IMG/VR virus record: IMGVR_UViG_3300020577_006811
Span: 1 to 64,000 of that record
Direction: 5' to 3' (one strand)
Length of the DNA: 64,000 bases
Source: a virus
Taxonomy: Duplodnaviria > Caudoviricetes
The position numbers and the translations under genes were made by a program. This document shows positions 5,571 through 31,583 of this stretch, piece after piece (the first letter of the stretch is position 1; each line of letters opens with the position of its first letter). Below the pieces are notes generated by a model that worked only from the letters and a program-made list of their open reading frames with translations, made no database searches and was not told where the DNA came from.

Positions 5571-5918
5571 TCATGCCAGATGTAAAGGCATTCCGCGCCA
5601 CCGCCTTAGGCGAAAACGGCCTTCTAAGAAGGGCCTGTTTTGGCCGTTGCCGCGCAAAATGGTTTCATCGGATTGATCGGGTACGGCTCCAAACAGGCTA
5701 GTTGGAGGGGGAAAGATCATCCAGGCGTACTCAGAACCAAGGTAGGAATCGACAGCCGTTGAAGCCCCTTCCAGCTTAAGCGGCGCCGTTCCGAGCAATG
5801 AAAGAGGGTTGATAATCTTCGCCGGAAGGACGGATACCGGCATCAGACTGCTTGCCCGGACAATTGCCGGTGCGGCAAGGAAACCAAGCGCACCTGTCAG
5901 CAGGCCTCTACGGTTCAT
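5571..5918 (-). CDS. twin-arginine-leader protein carrying a major capsid protein fragment
   Basis: MNRRGLLTGALGFLAAPAIVRASSLMPV leader; LLGTAPLKLEGASTAVDSYLGSEYAW matches MCP 28563-28640 at 11/26 ungapped; AGGAG RBS. Confidence 0.75.
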   Translation of the reverse strand: MNRRGLLTGALGFLAAPAIVRASSLMPVSVLPAKIINPLSLLGTAPLKLEGASTAVDSYLGSEYAWMIFPPPTSLFGAVPDQSDETILRGNGQNRPFLEGRFRLRRWRGMPLHLA

Positions 5919-5928
5919 ACTAGCTCTC

Positions 5929-6138
5929 CTAAGACGCTATGGCGGTGTACGTCGCCACCGCAGCCAAGCCTACGATGCTCGCAAACAGCACCACCATGGC
6001 GACCATGCGAATGTTGGTGCAGACGTTGACGACGTCCCGCTGCTGGCTTGCCGTAGACACCGCCTGCGCGCACAGCATGAACAGCAGCGACCAAAACGCG
6101 GTCAGTCCAAGTAGCATCATCAACTTGGTGGCGGTCAT
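5929..6138 (-). CDS. small two-TM membrane protein
   Basis: Two hydrophobic stretches. Confidence 0.6.
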   Translation of the reverse strand: MTATKLMMLLGLTAFWSLLFMLCAQAVSTASQQRDVVNVCTNIRMVAMVVLFASIVGLAAVATYTAIAS

Positions 6139-6455
6139 ACCGAACCCACCCGAAAGAACGTCGGTATGTCGCCGGAAGCCGCGACCGCGTCCGACGCATT
6201 CGCGACCTCTATGCCAATCTCCTTGAACTTGGTTTTTGATGTCCCGCCAATGTCAACCCACTCAGCGACATGGTTCCCATATTGGTCAAATCCGGAGACC
6301 AACACTGCGCCAGCGCGGCCGGTCTTGTACGGCAGCGGCAGGATCGCGCGAGTTTCCACGGGCAGCACCGACACCGGCATCAGGCTGGAAACCCGGACGA
6401 TGGCAGGGGCGGCAAGCAAGCCAGCAACCCCAGTCAGAAACCCCCTACGGTTCAT
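6135..6455 (-). CDS. twin-arginine-leader protein carrying a fragment of the virion domain found in 30627/32424
   Basis: MNRRGFLTGVAGLLAAPAIVRVSSLMPV leader; VSGFDQYGNHVAE...FKEI resembles VVGYDLYGYPMSE...FKYI; ATGA overlap with the upstream gene. Confidence 0.75.
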   Translation of the reverse strand: MNRRGFLTGVAGLLAAPAIVRVSSLMPVSVLPVETRAILPLPYKTGRAGAVLVSGFDQYGNHVAEWVDIGGTSKTKFKEIGIEVANASDAVAASGDIPTFFRVGSV

Positions 6456-6748
6456 GGCTTCACTTCCCGCGCTTTCAGCATCTCGTCCGCAAGCCGGTAG
6501 CAGGTCTCGGCGACCAACTCGTTGCTCCACCCGCCGTTCGCCCGCGCTGACGCCGAAATCACATGGCCCATGGCCTGCCCAGCCAGCCAATCGCGAATCG
6601 ACATCCCAGTGTGGCCCGGGTCGTGGTAACTGCCGCCGCTTCCGTACCAACGGCCTTGTCCTGGATCAGGAATGGCTGAGGTTGTCGTTTGCGGGACGTA
6701 CTGCGTTGCAGGCCGCGGGAACGCCGGGCCGCCGTCGTGCTGTGTCAT
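6452..6748 (-). CDS. conserved phage protein (DGGPAFP...GMSxRDxxAxxAM family)
   Basis: DGGPAFP and GMSIRDWLAGQAM motifs. Confidence 0.8.
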   Translation of the reverse strand: MTQHDGGPAFPRPATQYVPQTTTSAIPDPGQGRWYGSGGSYHDPGHTGMSIRDWLAGQAMGHVISASARANGGWSNELVAETCYRLADEMLKAREVKP

Positions 6749-7414: not shown

Positions 7415-7942
7415 TCACCAGTATTCCGGAAACCGAAGATCCGGGCCGTATTCCTCCGTCAGGAGTTCGTCGCACAGTTCGGCGTAATATGCCGGGTCTT
7501 CCGTCTTCCAATCTGCCAACGTCATGCATTCGTGGCAGACAAGCTCATCGTCGGGCAGCACATAGTAATCGCTAGGGTCGCATTCATCCCAGTTGCAGCG
7601 CTCGCACGTGCCCATCCAGCCGGCAATGCGATGCGCTTCATTGCGCCCAGTCGTTTCCAGCTTATCGTCTAGGGCCTTGACGCGATGCCCCTCGGGAGCG
7701 CCATAGCATTCGCAGTCCTCTGGCGTGCAGCCTTCGCAAGAGCCGCGCTCGTCCATCCATTCCAGCATCGCGTCGCGAAGCGTCGGCGCGCGCAGCAACT
7801 GCCAGTCTCGGCCACTCTCTGTGCCGATAGCCCACACAGGGTGCAAAACGGGTGGCGCCACAGGCGCGGCAGCCACTGCAGTCGGCACAAGCGGCAATGC
7901 AGCGCCGGCTGCGGCCCCAATTAGAAATTGCCTGCGGTCCAT
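7415..7942 (-). CDS. twin-arginine-leader, Cys-rich protein
   Basis: MDRRQFLIGAAAGAALPLVPTAVAAAP leader; CEGC, CERC and CHEC motifs. Confidence 0.75.
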   Translation of the reverse strand: MDRRQFLIGAAAGAALPLVPTAVAAAPVAPPVLHPVWAIGTESGRDWQLLRAPTLRDAMLEWMDERGSCEGCTPEDCECYGAPEGHRVKALDDKLETTGRNEAHRIAGWMGTCERCNWDECDPSDYYVLPDDELVCHECMTLADWKTEDPAYYAELCDELLTEEYGPDLRFPEYW

Positions 7943-7950
7943 AAGCGCCC

Positions 7951-8106
7951 TCACTTCTTGCCCGCTTCGCGCAAGGCGGCGGCAACTCGTTCCTCAACGT
8001 GCTTGACAAAACACGTTGGATGAAAGGCGTGCCCTGGTTCTCGCAACGGGGTTTCCCAAGACAAGAAGGCAAGCCTGCAATGAGTACAAACTTCGGTCTG
8101 CTGCAT
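7951..8106 (-). CDS. small Zn-binding protein (51 aa)
   Basis: Manual translation MQQTEVCTHC...FHPTCFVKH; CxxC...HxxC. Confidence 0.5.
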   Translation of the reverse strand: MQQTEVCTHCRLAFLSWETPLREPGHAFHPTCFVKHVEERVAAALREAGKK

Positions 8107-14391: not shown

Positions 14392-14850
14392 ATGCTCTCC
14401 CGCCGCCACCTTGCGTCTGCCGCCGCAGCGCTCATCGGCGCTGTTGGCCTTGCGCGCCCAACGCAGGCGGCTCTCGCGGATCAAGACGACGACTTCACCT
14501 TCCTCCAGGCCAAGCGCGCGCAGCTCCTAGCCGCGACGCACGAAGCCGGTCAGCGCGATCCCTACGGCCGCGAGGTGGACATTCAGCGCGTGGTGCCAGG
14601 TGATCTTGAGCTTGTGGTCCAGTCCTGCAACGGTCTTGACCGCAAGACACGTTATGCCCTGATCCCGATTGATGCCTTGCGCGAGGACTTCAAGGCCGCG
14701 TGGTTCCGCGCCATCGCGCACGTGCTGCCGCCGCTGGAGAACACAGACATTCCAGCGTGGTCTGCGGCCAAGTTCTATGATGATGTGCCGCCGGCCGGCT
14801 GGGAAGTGGTGGGCGAATCCGAGAGCCACGTCATCTGCAAGAAGGTCTAG
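14392..14850 (+). CDS. twin-arginine-leader protein
   Basis: MLSRRHLASAAAALIGAVGLARPTQAA leader with an AxA-type cleavage site. Confidence 0.7.
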   Translation: MLSRRHLASAAAALIGAVGLARPTQAALADQDDDFTFLQAKRAQLLAATHEAGQRDPYGREVDIQRVVPGDLELVVQSCNGLDRKTRYALIPIDALREDFKAAWFRAIAHVLPPLENTDIPAWSAAKFYDDVPPAGWEVVGESESHVICKKV

Positions 14851-15155
14851 GCCCTCAAAGCCGCAAGCCGCTTGGCCTCTGACTCTTGCACAGCCGCCGT
14901 CGGCTTCTGCATCAAGATCAAGCCGTGCGTCTCAATCGCTTCCTCAACGGTGCTGACCGGCGCACCCGGATGTTCCGTCGGTGCCACAAACGTCCACCCG
15001 TTGTCCAGCCGCGCCTGCACGTTCGCCGGGTCCGCGTTACCCAAAAGCGCCGTGCGTACCCACTGATACGTGGTGCCGTCCGGCGCCTTGATGGACCATG
15101 GGTCGTGCCCAGCAGCCCAGCCAGAAACCCACGACGGGTCAAATCTACCATGCAT
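14847..15155 (-). CDS. paralogue of head-region protein 26667-27299; RRGFL leader lies in an overlapping frame
   Basis: PDGTTYQWVR...G..DP...GW..V...PG...GLILM matches 26667; a second frame from ATG 15151 encodes MVDLTRRGFLAGLLGTT. Confidence 0.65.
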   Translation of the reverse strand: MHGRFDPSWVSGWAAGHDPWSIKAPDGTTYQWVRTALLGNADPANVQARLDNGWTFVAPTEHPGAPVSTVEEAIETHGLILMQKPTAAVQESEAKRLAALRA

Positions 15156-15179
15156 TTCCCCTGCGATTTGGCCTGCGGA

Positions 15180-15434
15180 TCAAGTGTTTGATCCAACACG
15201 CGCCGCCGCGCGCTCAACCTGCTTGGAGATGTTCACCACTTCGTCCAGCAGGTGTTCGCGGCTTGGGCCCTCGCCGACGTTCTTCTCAACGTACCGAAAC
15301 AGATGATCCAGGCGCTTCACCACGGCGTCAAAGTCGCTTGGGCGCGGCGCAATAGGTGGCTGCGGTCTCATCGGCTGTCTCCGCGGATAGTGGCCAACGG
15401 GCACTGGACAGACAGCTTCCGATCTTCGGCTCAT
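15180..15434 (-). CDS. hypothetical protein
   Basis: ATG 15434 with GGGG RBS. Confidence 0.55.
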   Translation of the reverse strand: MSRRSEAVCPVPVGHYPRRQPMRPQPPIAPRPSDFDAVVKRLDHLFRYVEKNVGEGPSREHLLDEVVNISKQVERAAARVGSNT

Positions 15435-15741: not shown

Positions 15742-18672
15742 ATGCACGCGCCTGCCGATCTCCGCCAGAGGAAGGAACGCATCGCCGCGCTTATCTACGA
15801 AAAGCGCAAGCGGGAAAACCGCATCGTTATGGAAGACAGCCTCTACGAGTTCACGCGCGCGGCGTGGTCTTCCATTGAGAGCAGCACCTTCCAAGACAGT
15901 TGGGCCATTGAGGCGCTGTGCGAGCACCTGCAGGCCGTTACCTACGGCCACATCAAAAGATTGCTTATAAATTTCCCGCCGAGATGCGGCAAGCCGGTCG
16001 CGCACGACAGCCTTGTGCTCACGCGGGCTAAAGGGTTGGTTAAAATTGATCAGATTATCGTCGGGGACGAGGTTCTGACTCACAAGGGCAATTGGAAGCC
16101 AGTAACTGCCGTCCACCGCCAGGGCGTGCTGCCAATATTGCGTGTGCATACTGCTGGAGGCCGCATGGTAGAAGCTGCGCCAGACCACCCGTTTTTGACG
16201 CCTAATGGGTGGGTGGAGGCTGGCGCCCTTATGGTTGACGATGTATTGGGCATCGTACCTCCGCAATCGCCGTGCGGACGAAACTCCATACCTTTAGAGG
16301 AGGCCCGTTTGCTCGGGTACTTTGTTGGCGACGGGCATTGTGGCGGCACGCCAAACATCACATGCGCGGATGACGACATAGCGGCCGACATCATCCATTG
16401 CATCCGTGCGACCGGATTCGTTGCCGCCGACCAGTCGTATCGCATGGCGAATACCGGATACATGCTTCGCCGTATATCAATGAAGCCAATTAGCCACGCA
16501 AAGGAGCGCCGGCACAAAGGCTACAAAGGGCCCGTTCGGCAATGGCTGGCGGACCGTGGCCTAGACCATCAGTCATCATACACAAAGATGGCGCCATCTA
16601 GCATCATGGAGGGCTCGGATGACATCGTGGCCGCTTTCTTAGGGGCCTATTGGTCCTGCGATGGGTTTATCACAGCGAGAGGAAGAAAGGGCGACGGCGT
16701 CGAACGGACCGACCTGCAAATTGGTTGTGACAGCGTCAACCAAGCGTTCATGCGACAGGTTCAGACATTGTTGGCTCGTCTCGGGATAAACTCGCATGTC
16801 CGGACCAAGGTCAACAAGAAGCTCAAAACCAAGCGGCAAGGCGACCAATACGTTTCTTATAGCTTGACCCTCCGCTCGCAAGACGACTGTTATCGTTTTG
16901 CCCAACGCATCAAGCTAAAGCATTCCAAGCGCTTTAAGCTGGAATACGAATACAAACGCCGGTTTGATTTTGACCGCCCCATATGGGGTGAAGTGATTGT
17001 TTCCGTTGAAGAGGCTGGTGAGAAAGAATGCTTATGCCTTACTGTGGCTGATGATGAAAGTTTCACGGCTAACGGATTTGCCGTGCACAACAGTTCAGTC
17101 GCATCCATATGCTGGCCGGCTTGGACATGGGCGCAGCCTGAAGAGCGCCGCTCGTTCGTATGTGGCCCAGGCACGCAGTTCCTTACGGCGTCGTACAATC
17201 ACGCGCTATCCTTGAAACTCAGCACTGCCAGCCGGCGCCTGATCCTCTCGCCGTTCTATCAAGAGTATTGGGGTGACCGGTTTAAGCTTGCAGGCGACCA
17301 AAACTCTAAAACTCAGTACGACACGGACCAGGGTGGCACGCGCATATCTACGTCAATCGGTGGTAGTCTTATCGGTATCGGCGGTGCGGTACTACTAGCG
17401 GACGACCCCCACAACACAGAGTCCGTCGAAAGCGAAGCCGAGCGCGAGACTGTGCTTCGTTGGTGGAAGGAATTCAGCAGCACGCGCCTCAACGACCCGA
17501 ACGAGTCTGCCATCGTCGTGGTCATGCAGCGACTGAACGAGGCTGACGTCAGCGGCGTCATCCTTGAAAGCTCGCGCGACTGGACGCACCTCATGCTGCC
17601 AATGCGCTACGACGAAACGCGCCATTGCCGCACGGTCATTGCCCCCGGAAAGTTTTGGGAAGATCCCCGCAAGGATACAGGCGAATCCTTGATGTGGCCG
17701 GAGCGCTTCGGCGCGCAGAAGGTCAAGGAGATGGAAGACGATCTTGGGCCGTACATGGCGTCCGGTCGTCTCCAGCAGCGTCCGTCTCCGCAGGGCGGTG
17801 GCATTCTCAAGCGCGAATGGTGGAAGACTTGGGAAGAGCCAGAGTACCCGTACTGCTACTATAAGTGGGCGTCTGCCGACACGGCTTATACGGAAGCCGA
17901 AGAGAACGACCCCACGGGTTTTACGGTCTGGGGGCTCTTTGAGATTGCGCACCAGCCGCACATCATCCTCATGGATGCGTGGCGCAAGCGATTGGAACTG
18001 CACATTCCGCAGCAATGGGAAGACAAAGACGGCACCCCATCCAGCCGATTGGAGCAGGTCAAGTCGTGGCAGCGTGCAGCGTGGGCTCAATACAAAGCCA
18101 TGCAACAAGCACAGCAGGGTATGAAGCCGCCGCAGATTTCGCCCGAGTTGGAGCCGTGGTCCACGTACATCCATTACGGCATCAGCAACGCCGACCGCTG
18201 GCCCGACGAAACCTACGAGATGTGGCGACTGCGCACACAGGAGAAGTGGGGTCTGTGCGAATGGATCGCGCATTCGTGCAGGCGCTTCAGCGTCAACGAA
18301 CTTCTGATTGAGGCTAAGGCGACCGGCATCACAGTCGCTCAAGAGCTTCGGCGGCTGAATGGCAACGATGGCTGGGGCATTCAACTAAAGACTCCGCAGG
18401 GCGACAAGGTCGCACGTGCCTATGCGGTGCAAAGCACGCTAAGCTCCGGGCTCGTATATGCGCCAGACAAAGCCTGGGCCGATCTTGTGCTTGAGGAAAC
18501 CAGTTCGTTTCCCAAACACCGCTATAAAGATTTGACCGATTCTACCTCAATGGCGTGGCTTCACGTCCGCGAGATGGGCATGTTGACTAGACCTGAAGAA
18601 CGGTTGCTTGCCGAGCAAATGGCCGCACAATACCGGCCGCAAACCGCCCCACTTTACCCAGGATCGCGATGA
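15742..18672 (+). CDS. terL: terminase large subunit (intein-interrupted)
   Basis: Spliced Walker A LINFPPRCGK|SSVAS; Walker B LLADDPH; VVMQRL; QQRP; C-terminal nuclease SADTAY / IEAKATG / DLTDSTS. Confidence 0.95.
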   Translation: MHAPADLRQRKERIAALIYEKRKRENRIVMEDSLYEFTRAAWSSIESSTFQDSWAIEALCEHLQAVTYGHIKRLLINFPPRCGKPVAHDSLVLTRAKGLVKIDQIIVGDEVLTHKGNWKPVTAVHRQGVLPILRVHTAGGRMVEAAPDHPFLTPNGWVEAGALMVDDVLGIVPPQSPCGRNSIPLEEARLLGYFVGDGHCGGTPNITCADDDIAADIIHCIRATGFVAADQSYRMANTGYMLRRISMKPISHAKERRHKGYKGPVRQWLADRGLDHQSSYTKMAPSSIMEGSDDIVAAFLGAYWSCDGFITARGRKGDGVERTDLQIGCDSVNQAFMRQVQTLLARLGINSHVRTKVNKKLKTKRQGDQYVSYSLTLRSQDDCYRFAQRIKLKHSKRFKLEYEYKRRFDFDRPIWGEVIVSVEEAGEKECLCLTVADDESFTANGFAVHNSSVASICWPAWTWAQPEERRSFVCGPGTQFLTASYNHALSLKLSTASRRLILSPFYQEYWGDRFKLAGDQNSKTQYDTDQGGTRISTSIGGSLIGIGGAVLLADDPHNTESVESEAERETVLRWWKEFSSTRLNDPNESAIVVVMQRLNEADVSGVILESSRDWTHLMLPMRYDETRHCRTVIAPGKFWEDPRKDTGESLMWPERFGAQKVKEMEDDLGPYMASGRLQQRPSPQGGGILKREWWKTWEEPEYPYCYYKWASADTAYTEAEENDPTGFTVWGLFEIAHQPHIILMDAWRKRLELHIPQQWEDKDGTPSSRLEQVKSWQRAAWAQYKAMQQAQQGMKPPQISPELEPWSTYIHYGISNADRWPDETYEMWRLRTQEKWGLCEWIAHSCRRFSVNELLIEAKATGITVAQELRRLNGNDGWGIQLKTPQGDKVARAYAVQSTLSSGLVYAPDKAWADLVLEETSSFPKHRYKDLTDSTSMAWLHVREMGMLTRPEERLLAEQMAAQYRPQTAPLYPGSR
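15994..17091 (+). mobile_element. intein (366 aa) with LAGLIDADG homing endonuclease
   Basis: Starts PVAHDSLV after GK; block B AAPDHPF; LLGYFVGDGH and FLGAYWSCDGF; ends SFTANGFAVHN|S. Confidence 0.92.
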
Positions 18673-21164: not shown

Positions 21165-23747
21165 ATGGCCAAAAAGCCCGCCAAGTCCCGCTCCAAGAAA
21201 AAGATCCAGGAAATCCCGGCGTTCGAAGTCGGGGGCGCCATCATGGAGCCGGAAGGCGAGGCCGCGGCGCCGACGATGGATGCAGCCTTTGGCCCCGCCA
21301 TCACCATCGTTAACGACGACGACAGCGTGACCATTGAGTTTGACACGGGCGAGGAAGAACTTCCCGACCCCGAGTTTGAAGACAACCTTGCAGAGCATAT
21401 CGATCGCACGACGCTCGGGCGCATTGCCAGCGACCTGCTGGAGCAGATCGAACAGGACGACCGCGACCGCTCCGAGTGGCTGACCCAGCGCGCCGACGGC
21501 CTAGAACTGCTGGGCACGAAGGTGGAAAAGCCAGGCGGCGGCGCTGTGGGCACGTCGTCTACGGCGGTGCCGGGGCAATCCACCGTGCGCGACGGCATTC
21601 TCAACGAGGCCGTGATCCGCTTCCAGGCCAACGCCTTTGCCGAGCTTTGTCCCTCTGAAGGCCCGGTCAAGGTCATGAACTATTCCAGCGAAACGCTGGA
21701 CGACGACAAACTGGCTGAAGACCTTGAGAAAGACCTGAACTTTTATCTGACCGGAGCCGGCGGCTCGGCCACAGCGACCGAGTATTACCCCGACACCCGC
21801 AACATGCTGTGGTGGGTCGGGTATGCCTCTGGCATGTTCAAGAAGATCTACAACTGCCCGCTGCGAGGGCGCCCCGTTTCCGAAAGCGTGGACGGCTCCG
21901 ATCTGATTGTGCCGTCCACAGCCACCAACCTGCACAACGCCCGCCGCATCACGCATCAGATGACTATGAGTCCGGTCATCATGAAGCGGATGCAGGTGCT
22001 GGGCGAATACCGCAACGTCGCCTTGCAGCAACCGAGCCCGCACAACAACGCCCTGGTTAACAGTGAAGCCGACATCGTCGGCATGAACCCGAACCAGACG
22101 CGGCCCGAGGACCAGGACTTTACCGTCTACGAGTGCTACTGCGACCTGGACATCCCAGGCTTTGAGCACACCGACAAGAAGGGCGAGCCCACGGGGCTGC
22201 CCGTGCCCTACATCGTGGTGATCGACAAGGACTCGCAAGAGATCCTGAGTATCAAGCGCAACTGGGATAAGCCGAAAGAGGGCGAAGAGGCCAAGCTTCC
22301 CAAGGCCAAGATTCCCTTCGTGCTGTTCCCGTATGTCACCGGGCTTGGCTTCTACGGCCAAGGCCTGCTGCACCAGCTCGGCAACTACACCACCGCGCTT
22401 ACCGCGATGCTGCGCGAGTGCATCGACGCGGGCATGTTTGCCTCGTTCCCGGGCTTCCTGTTTGCCAAGCCCATGGGGCGCCAGCTTCAAAACGAGTTCC
22501 GCGTGCCACCGGGCGGCGGCGCACCGATCGATGTCTCTGCCACCGGCAACGACATCACCAAAGCCGTTATGCCGCTGCCGTACAAGGACGTGTCGGCGGC
22601 CATGGTCGCGCTCATGTCGCAGACGCGGGAGCAAGCGGCCCGCTACGGCGGCATGGCCGAATCACCGACTGGAGAAGGCGTCATCAACGCGCCCGTGGGC
22701 AGCGTGCTGGCGGCCATCGACCAGGCCACCCGCATTGAAGGCGGCGTCCACAAGGCCCTATATGCGGCGCAGCGCGAAGAGTTCGAACTGCTGTTTTCCT
22801 TGTTCAAGGACAACCCCGAACCGCTGTGGGCCGGCAACCCACGCCCGGCCATGGGCGCCGATCCCGCCACGCGCATGCGCCGCTGGGAGCAGGCCACCAA
22901 GCATTGCAGCCTGACGCCTGCGTCAGACCCGAACGTGCCCTCGCACATGCATCGCTTGGCCAAAGCCAGCACGTACCTGCAGACGGCTCTGGCCGTCCCC
23001 GGCGTGTTTGACATGCGCCGCGTGCTGACCCGTTGGGCCGCCATGGTGCGCATTGACGACATTGAACAGGACTTCCTGCCCGAGCAACCGCCAATGCAGC
23101 CGCCGCCGCTCAATCCGCTGCAGGTCGAGAAGCTGCGCATTGACGACAAGAATGCCGATACCCGCCGTCTTGACGTGGTTCTCAAGCACCAAGGCGCGAC
23201 CGCCAAACTGCAATCGGATCAGGAGATTGCAGCCGCCAAGATGGCCGAAGGACAGGCAACGGCTTTGGATCAGGGCCAGATTGACCCGCTTCAGGCGCGT
23301 GCGCTTGACCTCAAACAGCAGCAGTTGGACCAGAACGCGCAGAAGCTGGCCGTTGACGCGCACCAGAAGCATGCCGAACTGAACAGCAAGGAGTCTATTG
23401 AAGCGCTGAAACTGGTCAACGCTGCCTTCGTGCACCCGGAGTCGCAGGGAGTAGCAAGCCAGGAGATGGCAAAGCTTCAAGACATCATCGCGCCAGCTGC
23501 CGACAACAACCACCGCCCCGCCGCCGCGCCGTTCGGGTTGTCGTCCATGGCAGCCGGCGGCCCCGTGCGCGACGAAGAGACAGTCATTGAACCGGACGAG
23601 ATCATCGTCATCCGGCCTTACGAAGCCCCCTCTGAAGACGACATCGCGCAGGCCGTTGTGGAAGACGCCGCCTACAGGGCGCAGTTGGATCAAATCCTGC
23701 ACGATTATCTTCTTGGGCGTCGGCAGGAACGCGCCTATACCAATTGA
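21165..23747 (+). CDS. portal protein
   Basis: 860 aa after the terminase; DD.DRSEW...GLELLG, E.VIRFQA.A..EL.P..GPVK, FYG.GL.H.LG motifs; long coiled-coil C-terminus. Confidence 0.85.
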   Translation: MAKKPAKSRSKKKIQEIPAFEVGGAIMEPEGEAAAPTMDAAFGPAITIVNDDDSVTIEFDTGEEELPDPEFEDNLAEHIDRTTLGRIASDLLEQIEQDDRDRSEWLTQRADGLELLGTKVEKPGGGAVGTSSTAVPGQSTVRDGILNEAVIRFQANAFAELCPSEGPVKVMNYSSETLDDDKLAEDLEKDLNFYLTGAGGSATATEYYPDTRNMLWWVGYASGMFKKIYNCPLRGRPVSESVDGSDLIVPSTATNLHNARRITHQMTMSPVIMKRMQVLGEYRNVALQQPSPHNNALVNSEADIVGMNPNQTRPEDQDFTVYECYCDLDIPGFEHTDKKGEPTGLPVPYIVVIDKDSQEILSIKRNWDKPKEGEEAKLPKAKIPFVLFPYVTGLGFYGQGLLHQLGNYTTALTAMLRECIDAGMFASFPGFLFAKPMGRQLQNEFRVPPGGGAPIDVSATGNDITKAVMPLPYKDVSAAMVALMSQTREQAARYGGMAESPTGEGVINAPVGSVLAAIDQATRIEGGVHKALYAAQREEFELLFSLFKDNPEPLWAGNPRPAMGADPATRMRRWEQATKHCSLTPASDPNVPSHMHRLAKASTYLQTALAVPGVFDMRRVLTRWAAMVRIDDIEQDFLPEQPPMQPPPLNPLQVEKLRIDDKNADTRRLDVVLKHQGATAKLQSDQEIAAAKMAEGQATALDQGQIDPLQARALDLKQQQLDQNAQKLAVDAHQKHAELNSKESIEALKLVNAAFVHPESQGVASQEMAKLQDIIAPAADNNHRPAAAPFGLSSMAAGGPVRDEETVIEPDEIIVIRPYEAPSEDDIAQAVVEDAAYRAQLDQILHDYLLGRRQERAYTN

Positions 23748-28412: not shown

Positions 28413-29324
28413 ATGGCAGCTAATAGCGCACAAATTCGCAACCTCCTCCTCCCGGGCCTGTACAAGGTCGCGGGTCAGTACGAGCGTTACCCCAAGGAGT
28501 GGTCGCAGATCTTTACGACCGTCAAGAGCACCCTGCAGACCGAATCTGCCGTGCAGACCCGCATTCTGGGCCTCGCGCAGATGAAGGTGGAAGGCGGCGC
28601 AACGGCCTTTGACAACAACATGGGCCAGCGCTGGGTGTGGAACGCCACCGCCTTCGAAGTGGCGCTCGGCTACGCAATCACCCTGCGCGCCATTGAAGAC
28701 AACCAGTACACCAAGGATTTCAACATGATGAACCTGAAGCTGATCGACAGCTTCAGCCAGTTCAAGGAAATCCAGGGTGCCAACATTCTCAACAACGGTC
28801 AGACCTACGATCCGACCGTTGGCGGTGACGGCGTGGCTCTGTTCTCCACGGCGCATCCCTACGACCTCGGCACATGGGCCAACACGTTCTCCACGCAGTT
28901 GGACCTCAACGAGTCGTCCCTGCTGCAGGCCTACGTGAATATCGGCTCCACGTTCGTGGACGAAGCCGGTCTGCGCGTGAACGCCAAGGCCACCAAGCTC
29001 ATCGTCCCCCCAGCCCTTGAGCCCGTTGCCCTGCGTCTGATGCGCTCGGAAATGCGCCCCGGCACCAGCAACAACGACCCCAACGTCATCCCGATGATGG
29101 AGGCCGGCACCGACAAGATGATGGTCTACCATTACCTCACGTCCAACTACGCGTGGTTCGTGAAAACCGACAAGGACGGCCTGCACTACTTCGACCGCAT
29201 CGCATTTGATGCGGACTCCTGGATCGACAACGTCACGGACAATATCCTACATAAAGGGAGAGAGCGCTACACATTTTCCTACCGCGATCCCCGAGCCATT
29301 TGGGGAAGTTTCCCTACATCCTAA
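28413..29324 (+). CDS. major capsid protein
   Basis: AQIRNLLLPGL, K.EG....D, .ALG.AIT..AIEDN.Y, DGVALFSTAHP, LIVPP.LE..A.RL, RY.FS..DPR motifs. Confidence 0.9.
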   Translation: MAANSAQIRNLLLPGLYKVAGQYERYPKEWSQIFTTVKSTLQTESAVQTRILGLAQMKVEGGATAFDNNMGQRWVWNATAFEVALGYAITLRAIEDNQYTKDFNMMNLKLIDSFSQFKEIQGANILNNGQTYDPTVGGDGVALFSTAHPYDLGTWANTFSTQLDLNESSLLQAYVNIGSTFVDEAGLRVNAKATKLIVPPALEPVALRLMRSEMRPGTSNNDPNVIPMMEAGTDKMMVYHYLTSNYAWFVKTDKDGLHYFDRIAFDADSWIDNVTDNILHKGRERYTFSYRDPRAIWGSFPTS

Positions 29325-29491
29325 CAAAAATGGGGCTGAGAGCATGTACCGCTCTCAGCCCAATCCTCTAATATCGCAAACTGACCTGCTCACGGTAAAT
29401 TAACAATTAAAGTCGAAGGAGGCCTTGTCCTGATATGGGTGCGGCTATACACATATCTCTGTCGGTAGACCGCCCATCGAAAGGAACGCCC

Positions 29492-30619
29492 ATGTCCCGT
29501 CACGCTGAGAACGTTTTGTCCACGGTCACGCAAGATCGCCTCATGCATCTTCTCGCCTACGACCCTGACACTGGATCACTGTCATGGCGCAACCCCTTGT
29601 CCCCCGCCGTCCGAGCTGGAGACGTGGCCGGAACGGTGTCCGGTAAAAACAACAAATATCGGTATGTATCCATTGATGGCAGTGTGTTTCTTGCGCATCG
29701 GCTTGCGTGGCTTATGGTTTATGGTGCTTGGCCAGGGGCCGAAATTAGTGCGCGAGACGGCAACCTTCTCAATTTAAGAATTGGAAATCTCTACATCCGC
29801 TCCAAGGCGGAAGTTATTGCGGCGCGCAAGACCCGCTCTAAGTCCGGCATTAAAGGCGTCTATCAACAACCTGGGGGCAAGTGGTCGGCTCAAATTCGGC
29901 GCGACTACCAATTTGTGCATTTGGGCACGTTTGCGACTAAAGAAGAGGCTGGCAAAGCGGTGGCCGCCGCAAATGATCAACCACTTGATAAGTGGCCGCG
30001 CAAAGAAACGAATGACCTAGCGCGGCGCTCAACACGCAACAGCCTCTTGCATGGACTTTGGAAGAGAACCTTGCGCGACAACACCGTTGCTCCTGAATGG
30101 AACGCCTTTTCGGCTTTTGCCGCCGATGTAGGAGAAATGGCGTATCCGCACTGCAGGCTTGTCCCGCTGGATGGAAATGCAGTTCTTGGGCCCGAAAACT
30201 TCAGTGTTGAAGCCCGGGCGAAATTCGATCGCAAGACACCAGAAGGACGCCGCGCGTACTATTTGCACAAAAACAAAGTGCGCAAGCCGCAGATGCGCGA
30301 ACACCATCTTCAGCGAAAATTCGATCTTTCGCTTGAGGAGTACGCCGCCATGTCAAAGGCTCAGGGCGATGTATGCGCCATCTGCAGGCAGCCAGAAACG
30401 GCAACGCGCCTTGGCACGAAATTGCCCCTTGCCGTGGATCACTGCCACGGCAGCGGCGAAATTCGCGAACTGCTGTGCCGTGATTGTAACCACGTGCTTG
30501 GCAAGTTCAAAGACGATCCCTCGCGCTTCCGCGCGGCAGCCGACTACCTTGATCGGCATCGCGCGAAAGTTGATAGCGTTCCCGCGTCTTCTCCCGTCCC
30601 CCTAGAAAAGGAGCGCTAG
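29492..30619 (+). CDS. composite homing endonuclease: degenerate HNH + AP2 + second degenerate HNH-like module + endonuclease VII domain
   Basis: FLAHRLAWLMVYG.WP; SGIKGVY...W.AQI...HLGTF; CAICRQP...LAVDHCH...RELLCRDCN. Confidence 0.85.
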   Translation: MSRHAENVLSTVTQDRLMHLLAYDPDTGSLSWRNPLSPAVRAGDVAGTVSGKNNKYRYVSIDGSVFLAHRLAWLMVYGAWPGAEISARDGNLLNLRIGNLYIRSKAEVIAARKTRSKSGIKGVYQQPGGKWSAQIRRDYQFVHLGTFATKEEAGKAVAAANDQPLDKWPRKETNDLARRSTRNSLLHGLWKRTLRDNTVAPEWNAFSAFAADVGEMAYPHCRLVPLDGNAVLGPENFSVEARAKFDRKTPEGRRAYYLHKNKVRKPQMREHHLQRKFDLSLEEYAAMSKAQGDVCAICRQPETATRLGTKLPLAVDHCHGSGEIRELLCRDCNHVLGKFKDDPSRFRAAADYLDRHRAKVDSVPASSPVPLEKER

Positions 30620-30626
30620 TCGCACC

Positions 30627-31583
30627 ATGACAGAAGTCGTTTACTCTGGCCCGCTCGTCACGGCTCCATCGAACCCGCTGGGCTCGACGGGCACGGGCTC
30701 GGCCAACCAGAACCCTCAGTCGGCGCCGAATTTTTGGCTGCACGGTGATGCGCTGATCGATCCGCGGACGCCGTTTACCTATAAGCCCGGTAGCGGCAGC
30801 GGCCCGTCTGGCAATTCGATGGCGTCGCGGCCGGTGTACGGCTGGTACGGCATGGGGTGCCAGGTGATCAACGCGGTTCCGTCCACGATTTCGGCGGTGA
30901 ACATTGCGGCGACGCAGGCTGCGGCGGCGACGATCACGCTGGTGTCGTCGTCGGGTGCTGGCATCACGGTGGGCGTGTCGATCACGAATGCGGTGACGGG
31001 CGCGACGGTGACGGGTCTGCTGGCGATTGACACGGCGATGGCGGGTCAGTCGTACGGGCAGGATGCGAAGTACAACGTCTGGGACCCGACGAAGGCGATC
31101 TCGCGCAATGTGCGCATTACGTCGGCTGCGGATGACAGCGGCAAGACGTTTACGGTGGTGGGGTACGATCTCTACGGCTACCCGATGTCGGAAGTGATCA
31201 CGGGCTCGAATGCGAGCGTGGCTTCGGGGGTGAAGGCCTTCAAGTACATTGCGTCCGTGACGCCGTCCACGACGCCGGCCGGCAACGTATCGGTGGGCAC
31301 GGGCGACGTGATCGGTCTGCCGCTGCGGTCGGATTACTTTGGCGACCTGCGCATTGTTTACAACAACGCGGTGATCACGGCCTCGACGGGGTATACGGCG
31401 GCGGATACGACGTCTCCGGCGACGACCACCACGGGCGACGTGCGTGGCACGTATGCGCTGCAGACGGCTTCGAACAACTCGCGGCGTCTGCAGGTGATCT
31501 TGATGCCGCCGGCTGCGAACTGCGCGACCGTTACTGGTTTGCTGGGCGTGGCGCAGAACCTGTCGTCCACGAACGGCAGTTAA
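30627..31583 (+). CDS. virion structural protein
   Basis: Ser/Thr/Ala/Gly-rich; RNVRITS..D.SGKTFTVVGYD.YG.P.SE domain. Confidence 0.75.
   Translation: MTEVVYSGPLVTAPSNPLGSTGTGSANQNPQSAPNFWLHGDALIDPRTPFTYKPGSGSGPSGNSMASRPVYGWYGMGCQVINAVPSTISAVNIAATQAAAATITLVSSSGAGITVGVSITNAVTGATVTGLLAIDTAMAGQSYGQDAKYNVWDPTKAISRNVRITSAADDSGKTFTVVGYDLYGYPMSEVITGSNASVASGVKAFKYIASVTPSTTPAGNVSVGTGDVIGLPLRSDYFGDLRIVYNNAVITASTGYTAADTTSPATTTTGDVRGTYALQTASNNSRRLQVILMPPAANCATVTGLLGVAQNLSSTNGS

Follow-up and report, generated by a model that had tools for sequence, protein, structure and literature searches.

A large phage-restricted family of small proteins that appear to join a conserved, twin-arginine-like leader to diverged copies of the phage's own virion proteins

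Two small genes, here called A (P0001; 5571-5918, minus strand, 115 amino acids) and B (P0002; 6135-6455, minus strand, 106 amino acids from the ATG at 6455), lie within the first 64,000 nucleotides (the window, which is the whole stretch of DNA analysed) of the Caudoviricetes record IMGVR_UViG_3300020577_006811 of IMG/VR. We conclude with high confidence that they are paralogues of long standing within a very large family of two-module small proteins restricted to phages, in which a conserved N-terminal leader is followed by a cargo of 40-130 residues that consists of between one and three short stretches, each a diverged copy of part of a virion protein of the same phage, with the major capsid protein as by far the main parent and with portal, tail-fibre and head-tail adaptor proteins and pieces resembling P0003, the product of the window gene starting at 30627, as further parents. 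This confidence applies to the joint claim, that is to old paralogy, a large family restricted to phages, a conserved leader and cargos that are copies of virion protein segments. The family is previously undescribed: above curated cut-offs no Pfam or NCBIfam match is found, PHROG matches concern some cargos only, and no description of such proteins was found in the literature on the leader motif, on twin-arginine translocation (Tat) together with capsids, on capsid decoys or on capsid-fragment paralogues.

The leaders of A and B comprise residues 1-32 (5823-5918 and 6360-6455 respectively, both minus strand). Of the 34 N-terminal residues 27 are identical (BLASTP expectation value (E) 6e-16), while nothing similar follows after residue 34, which bears out the sequence-only reading that had described two proteins nearly identical over about 32 residues and completely divergent thereafter. 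The similarity on the DNA level sets in precisely with the start codon and tails off around codon 33, with 73% identity and many synonymous changes; over the first 30 codons the Nei-Gojobori distances are 0.14 at nonsynonymous (dN) and 1.29 at synonymous (dS) sites, a dN/dS of 0.11. As the synonymous distance is saturating and dN/dS low, the duplication is old and it is the peptide, not the DNA, that has been conserved. For the same reason A and B have not exchanged recently, and the alignment of the two leaders, which had been expected to reveal a recombination breakpoint, contains none.

Searching with B yielded 43 small proteins, most of them alike in the leader only (70-90% identity) and wholly different afterwards. 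The survey of cargo diversity behind the motif AAPAIVR.SSLMPV in IMG/VR, proposed beforehand by the sequence-only reading, placed the leader on at least 121 confirmed viral contigs with 121 distinct cargos, which fall into 88 clusters and whose C-termini are not constant. Against 1.84 billion cluster representatives, the leader profile gave 642 matches at E<=1e-10 and 9,839 at E<=1e-3, the carriers among the matches listed being small (39-250 amino acids); among proteins of 187-2000 amino acids no longer carriers were found, which is weak evidence only. Among 185,579 prokaryotic species genomes only six leader loci were confirmed, all of them on contigs of metagenome-assembled genomes, several labelled Hyphomicrobiales, Alphaproteobacteria or Methylocapsa. 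In complete viral records the leader is mostly present once, and at most in four copies; in the 82-kb record to which the window belongs the copies are A and B only.

The consensus of 78 distinct leaders, xxRRGFLTGLxxLxAAPAIVRASSLMPVK, to whose profile (A3) the leader of A fits, consists of a twin arginine, F/L and about 15 hydrophobic residues, followed by AAPAIVR-(A/V)-S-S-L-M-P-V-(K/R). The twin arginine, Pro, Ile and Met are invariant in all 78, the second half is nearly fixed, and the twin arginine is kept in about 160 of about 160 further leader proteins. With dN/dS of 0.04-0.14 and dS above 1 in six informative of eight comparisons, the leader is shown, at the level of substitution rates, to be a 29-residue module under strong purifying selection. 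Across 80 loci no gene is conserved next to the leader gene, except for head-module genes in a subset; the top neighbour cluster was rejected as a partner gene, as it is an ORF antisense to the leader. One metagenomic protein of 250 amino acids (P0184) carries tandem leaders, a degenerate one ending in SLMPVS and, directly thereafter, a second of the form RRGFL...SLMPI.

Evidence for the origin of the cargos comes from the genomes that encode them. Twenty-three whole viral genomes were fetched and each cargo was searched against its own genome. For 11 of the first 21 cargos one non-self match was obtained, with 28-72 bits except for 26.2 bits (E 0.002) in genome G026, and shuffled cargos never scored above 26 bits; together with a cargo of G006 and that of A, matched to its capsid protein by BLASTP, this amounts to 13 of 26 leader genes. 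The target is the major capsid protein in every matched case (13/13), and the capsid targets scanned belong to the major-head-protein PHROGs 283, 9953, 212, 334, 1357 and 371. In an independent set, 156 further cargos were compared with 1.58 million residues of six-frame open reading frames (ORFs) from the same genomes; 23 cargos matched at E<1e-3, all of them within 13 capsid-sized ORFs (300-440 amino acids), 11 of which are PHROG major head proteins. This set adds PHROGs 1328 and 3437, so that the capsid parents span at least eight PHROG families. When 117 fresh members were compared with all PHROGs, the named matches were three major head proteins and one head-tail adaptor; one cargo compared with GenBank phages matched mainly genes annotated as coat or capsid, to which all its matches at E<0.01 belong, and one cargo corresponds to the C-terminal domain of a tail fibre.

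The cargo segments look like virion-protein stretches of 12-60 amino acids, most commonly from the capsid, also from portal and tail fibre. No full-length capsid of the HK97 fold is present; the cargos match capsid stretches of 12-60 residues only. The capsid regions copied are mostly residues 1-80, next about 90-155, and next the last 20-50 residues. In four phages with a P22-type coat (G001, G003, G004 and G005), whose capsid group matches the Sf6 and P22 coat proteins in PDB, the cargo copies capsid residues 1-60 with 42-59% identity (E 1e-10 to 1e-17), and one paralogue in G001 copies the capsid C terminus, residues 368-405. The G005 cargo scores 154 against its own capsid protein and 112-117 against other capsids; on such scores, the cargo is seen to track the lineage of its own capsid. 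Cargos evolve faster than the capsid protein itself, with dN/dS of 0.07-0.48, and some are mosaics with permuted segment order or with two parents, such as capsid plus a portal piece in one relative. In G004 (locus L098, 13861-15602) the leader gene is directly flanked by a scaffold-like gene and by the capsid gene, with all three on the same strand. It has the appearance of a partial tandem duplication of the capsid gene at its 5' end, set behind a leader, which may be the route by which such genes originate.

In the window itself, residues 41-66 of A (5721-5798, minus) align with residues 51-76 (28563-28640) of the major capsid protein (28413-29324, plus; phrog_371 major head protein, E 2e-10) with 11 of 26 residues identical (BLASTP E 6e-6), and the Smith-Waterman comparison of the two proteins gives a z score of 9.5 with none of 300 shuffles scoring as high. 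A hidden Markov model (HMM) built from relatives of A only, without window proteins, finds the window capsid protein as its top non-leader match (E 4.3e-8), with collinear matches to three parts of it (residues ~50-75, ~238-254 and ~289-302). The cargo of A has a dN/dS of 0.48 against that of P0015, one of its two orthologues (the other is P0012). As part of the joint claim and with the same high confidence, A is thus a leader joined to three collinear capsid-like pieces. The window capsid protein is 46-48% identical to the capsids of G012, G014, G023 and G007 and has no sequence match in PDB; an AlphaFold model calculated from five sequences reached a predicted local distance difference test score (pLDDT) of 31 and is unusable for placing the copied segments on a fold.

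The cargo of B begins with a different parent. Its residues 35-51 (6303-6353, minus) match residues 465-481 (22557-22607) of the portal protein (21165-23747, plus; phrog_1216 portal, E 6.5e-25) at 9 of 17 positions (BLASTP E 0.003; also seen by tblastn), and two HMMs of relatives excluding B have the portal protein as top non-leader match in the genome, with E 0.0012 and 0.0018 and on two different portal segments. Against P0006, one of its orthologues P0005-P0007, the cargo of B has a dN/dS of 0.31. Under the joint claim, B is, with equal confidence, a leader followed by a portal-like piece and then by a hairpin (residues 50-83; 6207-6308, minus) which may derive from the family of P0003.

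It was this hairpin that the sequence-only reading had likened to the protein encoded from 30627 and to two repeats in that encoded from 32424. P0003 (30627-31583, plus; hairpin 31146-31262), a beta-rich protein encoded after the capsid gene, and P0004 (32424-33422, plus), which holds two copies of the P0003 repeat, do share a repeated domain (BLASTP E 4e-11 and 4e-10). The comparison of B with P0003 gives six identities in 13 positions at E 0.22 and Smith-Waterman z scores of 0.5-0.6 against shuffles, an HMM of B and three orthologues places P0003 third among the non-self matches of the genome (E 1.2), and hhalign of the B family against 107 P0003 homologues yields P 0.015 and a probability of 3%, at residues 174-212 of P0003, the stretch originally pointed out. 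The proposed likeness to 30627 is therefore not significant when B is taken alone, and that to 32424 was not recovered, as B has no match to P0004. A relationship is made plausible by the relatives: the leader protein L058 of G023 matches the same hairpin of the window P0003 (E 0.001), its cargo scores z 6.0 against the P0003 homologue of its own phage with one of 500 shuffles as high, and all three phages with a B-type hairpin cargo are among the five of 23 genomes that encode a P0003 homologue. P0003 has more than 220 homologues and an AlphaFold model with pLDDT 83-91 over residues 155-235, for which no solved fold was matched; the viral structure library returned uncharacterised proteins only and the PDB profile search nothing. 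Homologues of P0003 lie after the capsid gene, and in G012 and G023 directly after it, which is why the HNH/endonuclease VII fusion gene at 29435-30619, between the capsid gene and 30627 in the window, is likely a mobile insertion.

The features of the leader point to a twin-arginine signal peptide, as judged by its residue pattern. As in the S/T-R-R-x-F-L-K type of Tat motif, the twin arginine (78/78) is followed next but one by F/L (76/78) and then by L/I (76/78), and after about 15 mainly hydrophobic or small residues R/K occurs in 78/78 leaders, succeeded by A/V-S/A/G-S, compatible with cleavage. Weak matches to the Pfam TAT_signal profile occur in nine of 40 members (best E 0.0018, below the curated cut-off). 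Shared with Tat signal peptides are the invariant twin arginine, the x-F/L-L/I and the position at the extreme N terminus, and perhaps also the moderately hydrophobic stretch of about 15 residues with the basic and small residues after it. The leader, as a predicted export signal, differs in that it stays under the Pfam and TIGRFAM cut-offs and in that it occurs in phages and almost never in cellular genomes; moreover, AAPAIVR..SLMPV is kept residue for residue across thousands of unrelated cargos, a degree of conservation not seen in ordinary Tat signals. RR-type or signal-like N termini without the AAPAIVR leader are also found in two other small proteins of the window, at 7415-7954 (minus) and 14392-14850 (plus); the former matches TAT_signal with E 0.0035, and its cargo has no match among the window head proteins (Smith-Waterman z at most 1.2).

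As the leader is the same across unrelated capsid families and nearly absent from cellular genomes, it most likely engages a conserved host machine, and as the cargo matches the phage's own virion proteins, it most likely mimics unassembled capsid, portal or fibre subunits. The reading we favour, at a probability of roughly 0.35, is consequently that of a putative Tat-routed mimic of virion proteins. The cargo, in the guise of an unassembled capsid, portal or fibre subunit, would intercept whatever recognises such subunits, and the leader would carry or tether it, along with its bound partners, to the Tat translocon or the inner membrane; the most attractive target would be the immune sensors of the host, a class with many members that respond to capsid and tail-fibre proteins. 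Two literature points provide circumstantial support. Capsid and tail-fibre proteins, the same classes as are copied in the cargos, are the most common triggers of defence systems (review PMC13728456), and Tat is described, in a secondary account, as co-exporting bound partners by hitchhiking (Rodrigue et al. 1999, via PMC13673990). In known capsid-triggered defences (Gol peptide/Lit, CapRel, Thoeris, CBASS) recognition likewise concerns short stretches of the major capsid protein, with the difference that there parts of the capsid protein itself act as triggers; no description of a separately encoded capsid-fragment protein with an export leader was found in the literature. The more specific proposal that phages of Alphaproteobacteria carry a widespread counter-defence module, in which a decoy with the invariant leader, made by each phage lineage out of its own virion genes and presenting the capsid, portal or fibre segments to which sensors respond, would drag the sensor to Tat to be sequestered or expelled by hitchhiking, is doubtful.

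Several points weigh against a Tat-routed mimic. For half of the cargos tested no parent could be detected in their own genome, and the cargo of B is poorly folded in its ESM Atlas model (pLDDT 0.42) and gave no usable neighbours. The match of the B leader to Pfam TAT_signal (PF10518) reaches 12.6 bits (E 0.14) against a cut-off of 22.7, and TIGR01409 is matched in two of 40 members only (best E 0.0097, below the curated cut-off). The rigidity of AAPAIVR..SLMPV exceeds what a generic signal peptide needs and may reflect a different partner. No cultured phage with a leader match was found among 50,697 GenBank phage records, a search in which the BLAST low-complexity filter may mask part of the leader. 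As to the mechanism, a sensor bound by a decoy might be switched on instead of blocked, and an export signal on a cytoplasmic decoy would be explained by nothing but the hitchhiker idea.

An alternative which we consider rather unlikely is that the cargos are dominant-negative or tethering fragments of homo-oligomeric proteins (capsid, portal, fibre), which would co-assemble with the full-length subunits of their own phage or of a co-infecting relative and modulate, poison or membrane-localise assembly. It draws on the regions that are copied, near the capsid N terminus, at residues ~90-155 and at the C terminus, and in particular on residues 1-60 of the P22-like group, which in published work on P22 are reported to include the scaffold-binding N-arm, as well as on the position of leader genes, which are often found within the head module and in G004 directly between scaffold and capsid genes. 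The varied and permuted segments, like the occurrence of capsid and portal pieces within a single protein, agree poorly with one role in assembly; it is not obvious what an export-type leader would do while heads assemble in the cytoplasm, and well-studied phages assemble their capsids without such a factor. A complex prediction for the G001 capsid protein and the cargo of its leader protein scored 0.00 and provides no evidence either way. The comparison with microProteins or dominant-negative fragments holds insofar as a small protein is homologous to a part of a larger self-assembling protein of the same genome; it ends where the concept stems from eukaryotic transcription factors, while the proteins described here are mosaics with a targeting leader whose binding to the parent is putative.

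Unlikely, too, are exported envelope proteins, with a Tat signal that would be cleaved and a periplasmic cargo that would, for example, mask receptors or block the entry of superinfecting phages. Capsid and portal never reach the periplasm in infection, yet capsid pieces dominate the cargos, and generic signal peptides are not conserved residue by residue across unrelated cargos. The twin arginine, the helix-breaking Pro and the small residues before LMPV, which are compatible with signal peptidase I, nevertheless suit export, a tail-fibre C-terminal cargo could bind a receptor, and the window phage has the other signal-bearing small proteins at 7415-7954 and 14392-14850. The same reading gains from the C-termini of 236 leader proteins, of which 42% end in Ala or Ser (21% in background ORFs) and 14% in A[SA] (3%). 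Such ends may be a degradation tag; they resemble the preferences of tail-specific periplasmic proteases.

That the cargo is an address into the phage's own procapsid, with the conserved hydrophobic leader as the active part carried into the next host cell together with the DNA, would explain why the constant part is common to all phages and the variable part matches the own head proteins, and would agree with the small size of the proteins and their frequent position in the head module. We regard such virion-packaged effectors as improbable, as an N-terminal twin-arginine signal would tend to pull the protein out of the cytoplasm, the site of head assembly, and as A and B themselves stand among small genes on the strand opposite to the structural module. 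Internal proteins of phage T4, which carry a capsid targeting sequence, are the analogy here. They also have a short conserved N-terminal leader, diverse small phage-encoded cargos and several members per genome, but no sequence similarity to the present family, in which the leader resembles a membrane-translocation signal and is common to phages of unrelated capsid families, and in which the cargo, not the leader, is related to the capsid.

The sequence-only reading itself had proposed cargo exchange at the SLMPV boundary, as in a leader/cargo cassette system; in its strict form, such a system would swap arbitrary cargos by recombination. One conserved leader in front of 88 cargo clusters stands, and relatives do combine leader variants and cargo segments differently; the arbitrariness of the cargo does not, since cargos are drawn from the virion proteins of their own phage and not from an arbitrary pool. 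Free exchange at SLMPV alone is contradicted by the saturating synonymous distance of the window leaders, which leaves no DNA homology to guide it, and by segments that relatives share past the leader, which place several junctions inside the cargo. Partners that might be expected of such cassettes were not found either: no dedicated maturase of the type known for ribosomally synthesized and post-translationally modified peptides was found next to the leader gene in 80 loci, no toxin family occurs among the matches of a member-by-member scan of Pfam, PHROG and NCBIfam, and no immunity partner was found. A free cassette is largely refuted by the mapping of cargos to their own capsids and hence very improbable. 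Least credible of all are non-functional remains of partial structural-gene duplications fused by chance to a mobile leader ORF, which the tandem arrangement of the G004 gene recalls, but which can be dismissed, as cargo dN/dS values of 0.07-0.48 indicate purifying selection, parental motifs are kept in frame at 30-55% identity and useless DNA is purged from phage genomes.

Whatever the mechanism, the family is large, with hundreds to thousands of protein clusters, and its architecture amounts to a clear and testable rule, a shared leader joined to a cargo modelled on the capsid, portal or fibre of the phage itself. It points to an unrecognised process in which phages make use of mimics of the structural proteins that they encode. 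Mimics directed at host sensors would constitute a new kind of immune evasion, mimics directed at assembly a new layer in the control of capsid formation. For annotation, a small phage ORF that starts with this leader can be expected to carry a cargo copied from a virion protein, in most cases from the capsid.

By their arrangement, A and B look like real genes of one operon. The upstream gene (6452-6748, minus; phrog_2201 of unknown function, E 8e-16) and B overlap in an ATGA, which contains the stop codon of the former and the ATG of the latter (6455) and is indicative of translational coupling, the stop codon of B overlaps the ATG of a gene for a 69-amino-acid membrane protein (5929-6138, minus) with hydrophobic segments and a weak FtsK_4TM match, and A, preceded by an AGGAG ribosome-binding site, comes next. 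The B orthologue P0005 is also followed by a gene for 69 amino acids, but a small membrane protein is not a general partner, with a transmembrane segment in 6 of 37 adjacent downstream ORFs versus 5% in the background, a mild enrichment. The window region has no DNA or protein match among GenBank phages.

Further features of the window and its relatives were noted in passing. The large terminase (15742-18672, 976 amino acids) likely contains an intein; terminase matches start at about residue 450, and its N-terminal insert shows weak matches of the ribonucleotide-reductase type at residues 88-153. In a relative of the window phage an ISL3-family transposase is inserted near the small terminase gene (locus L181, 3209-4552). 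Finally, the product of 14847-15155 (minus) is homologous (E 6.5e-8) to the cargo of the leader protein L022 of another phage, and just upstream, in a different, overlapping frame, the remnant RRGFLAGLLG is encoded, so that the region 14847-15217 may represent a third leader gene that has decayed or suffered a frameshift.

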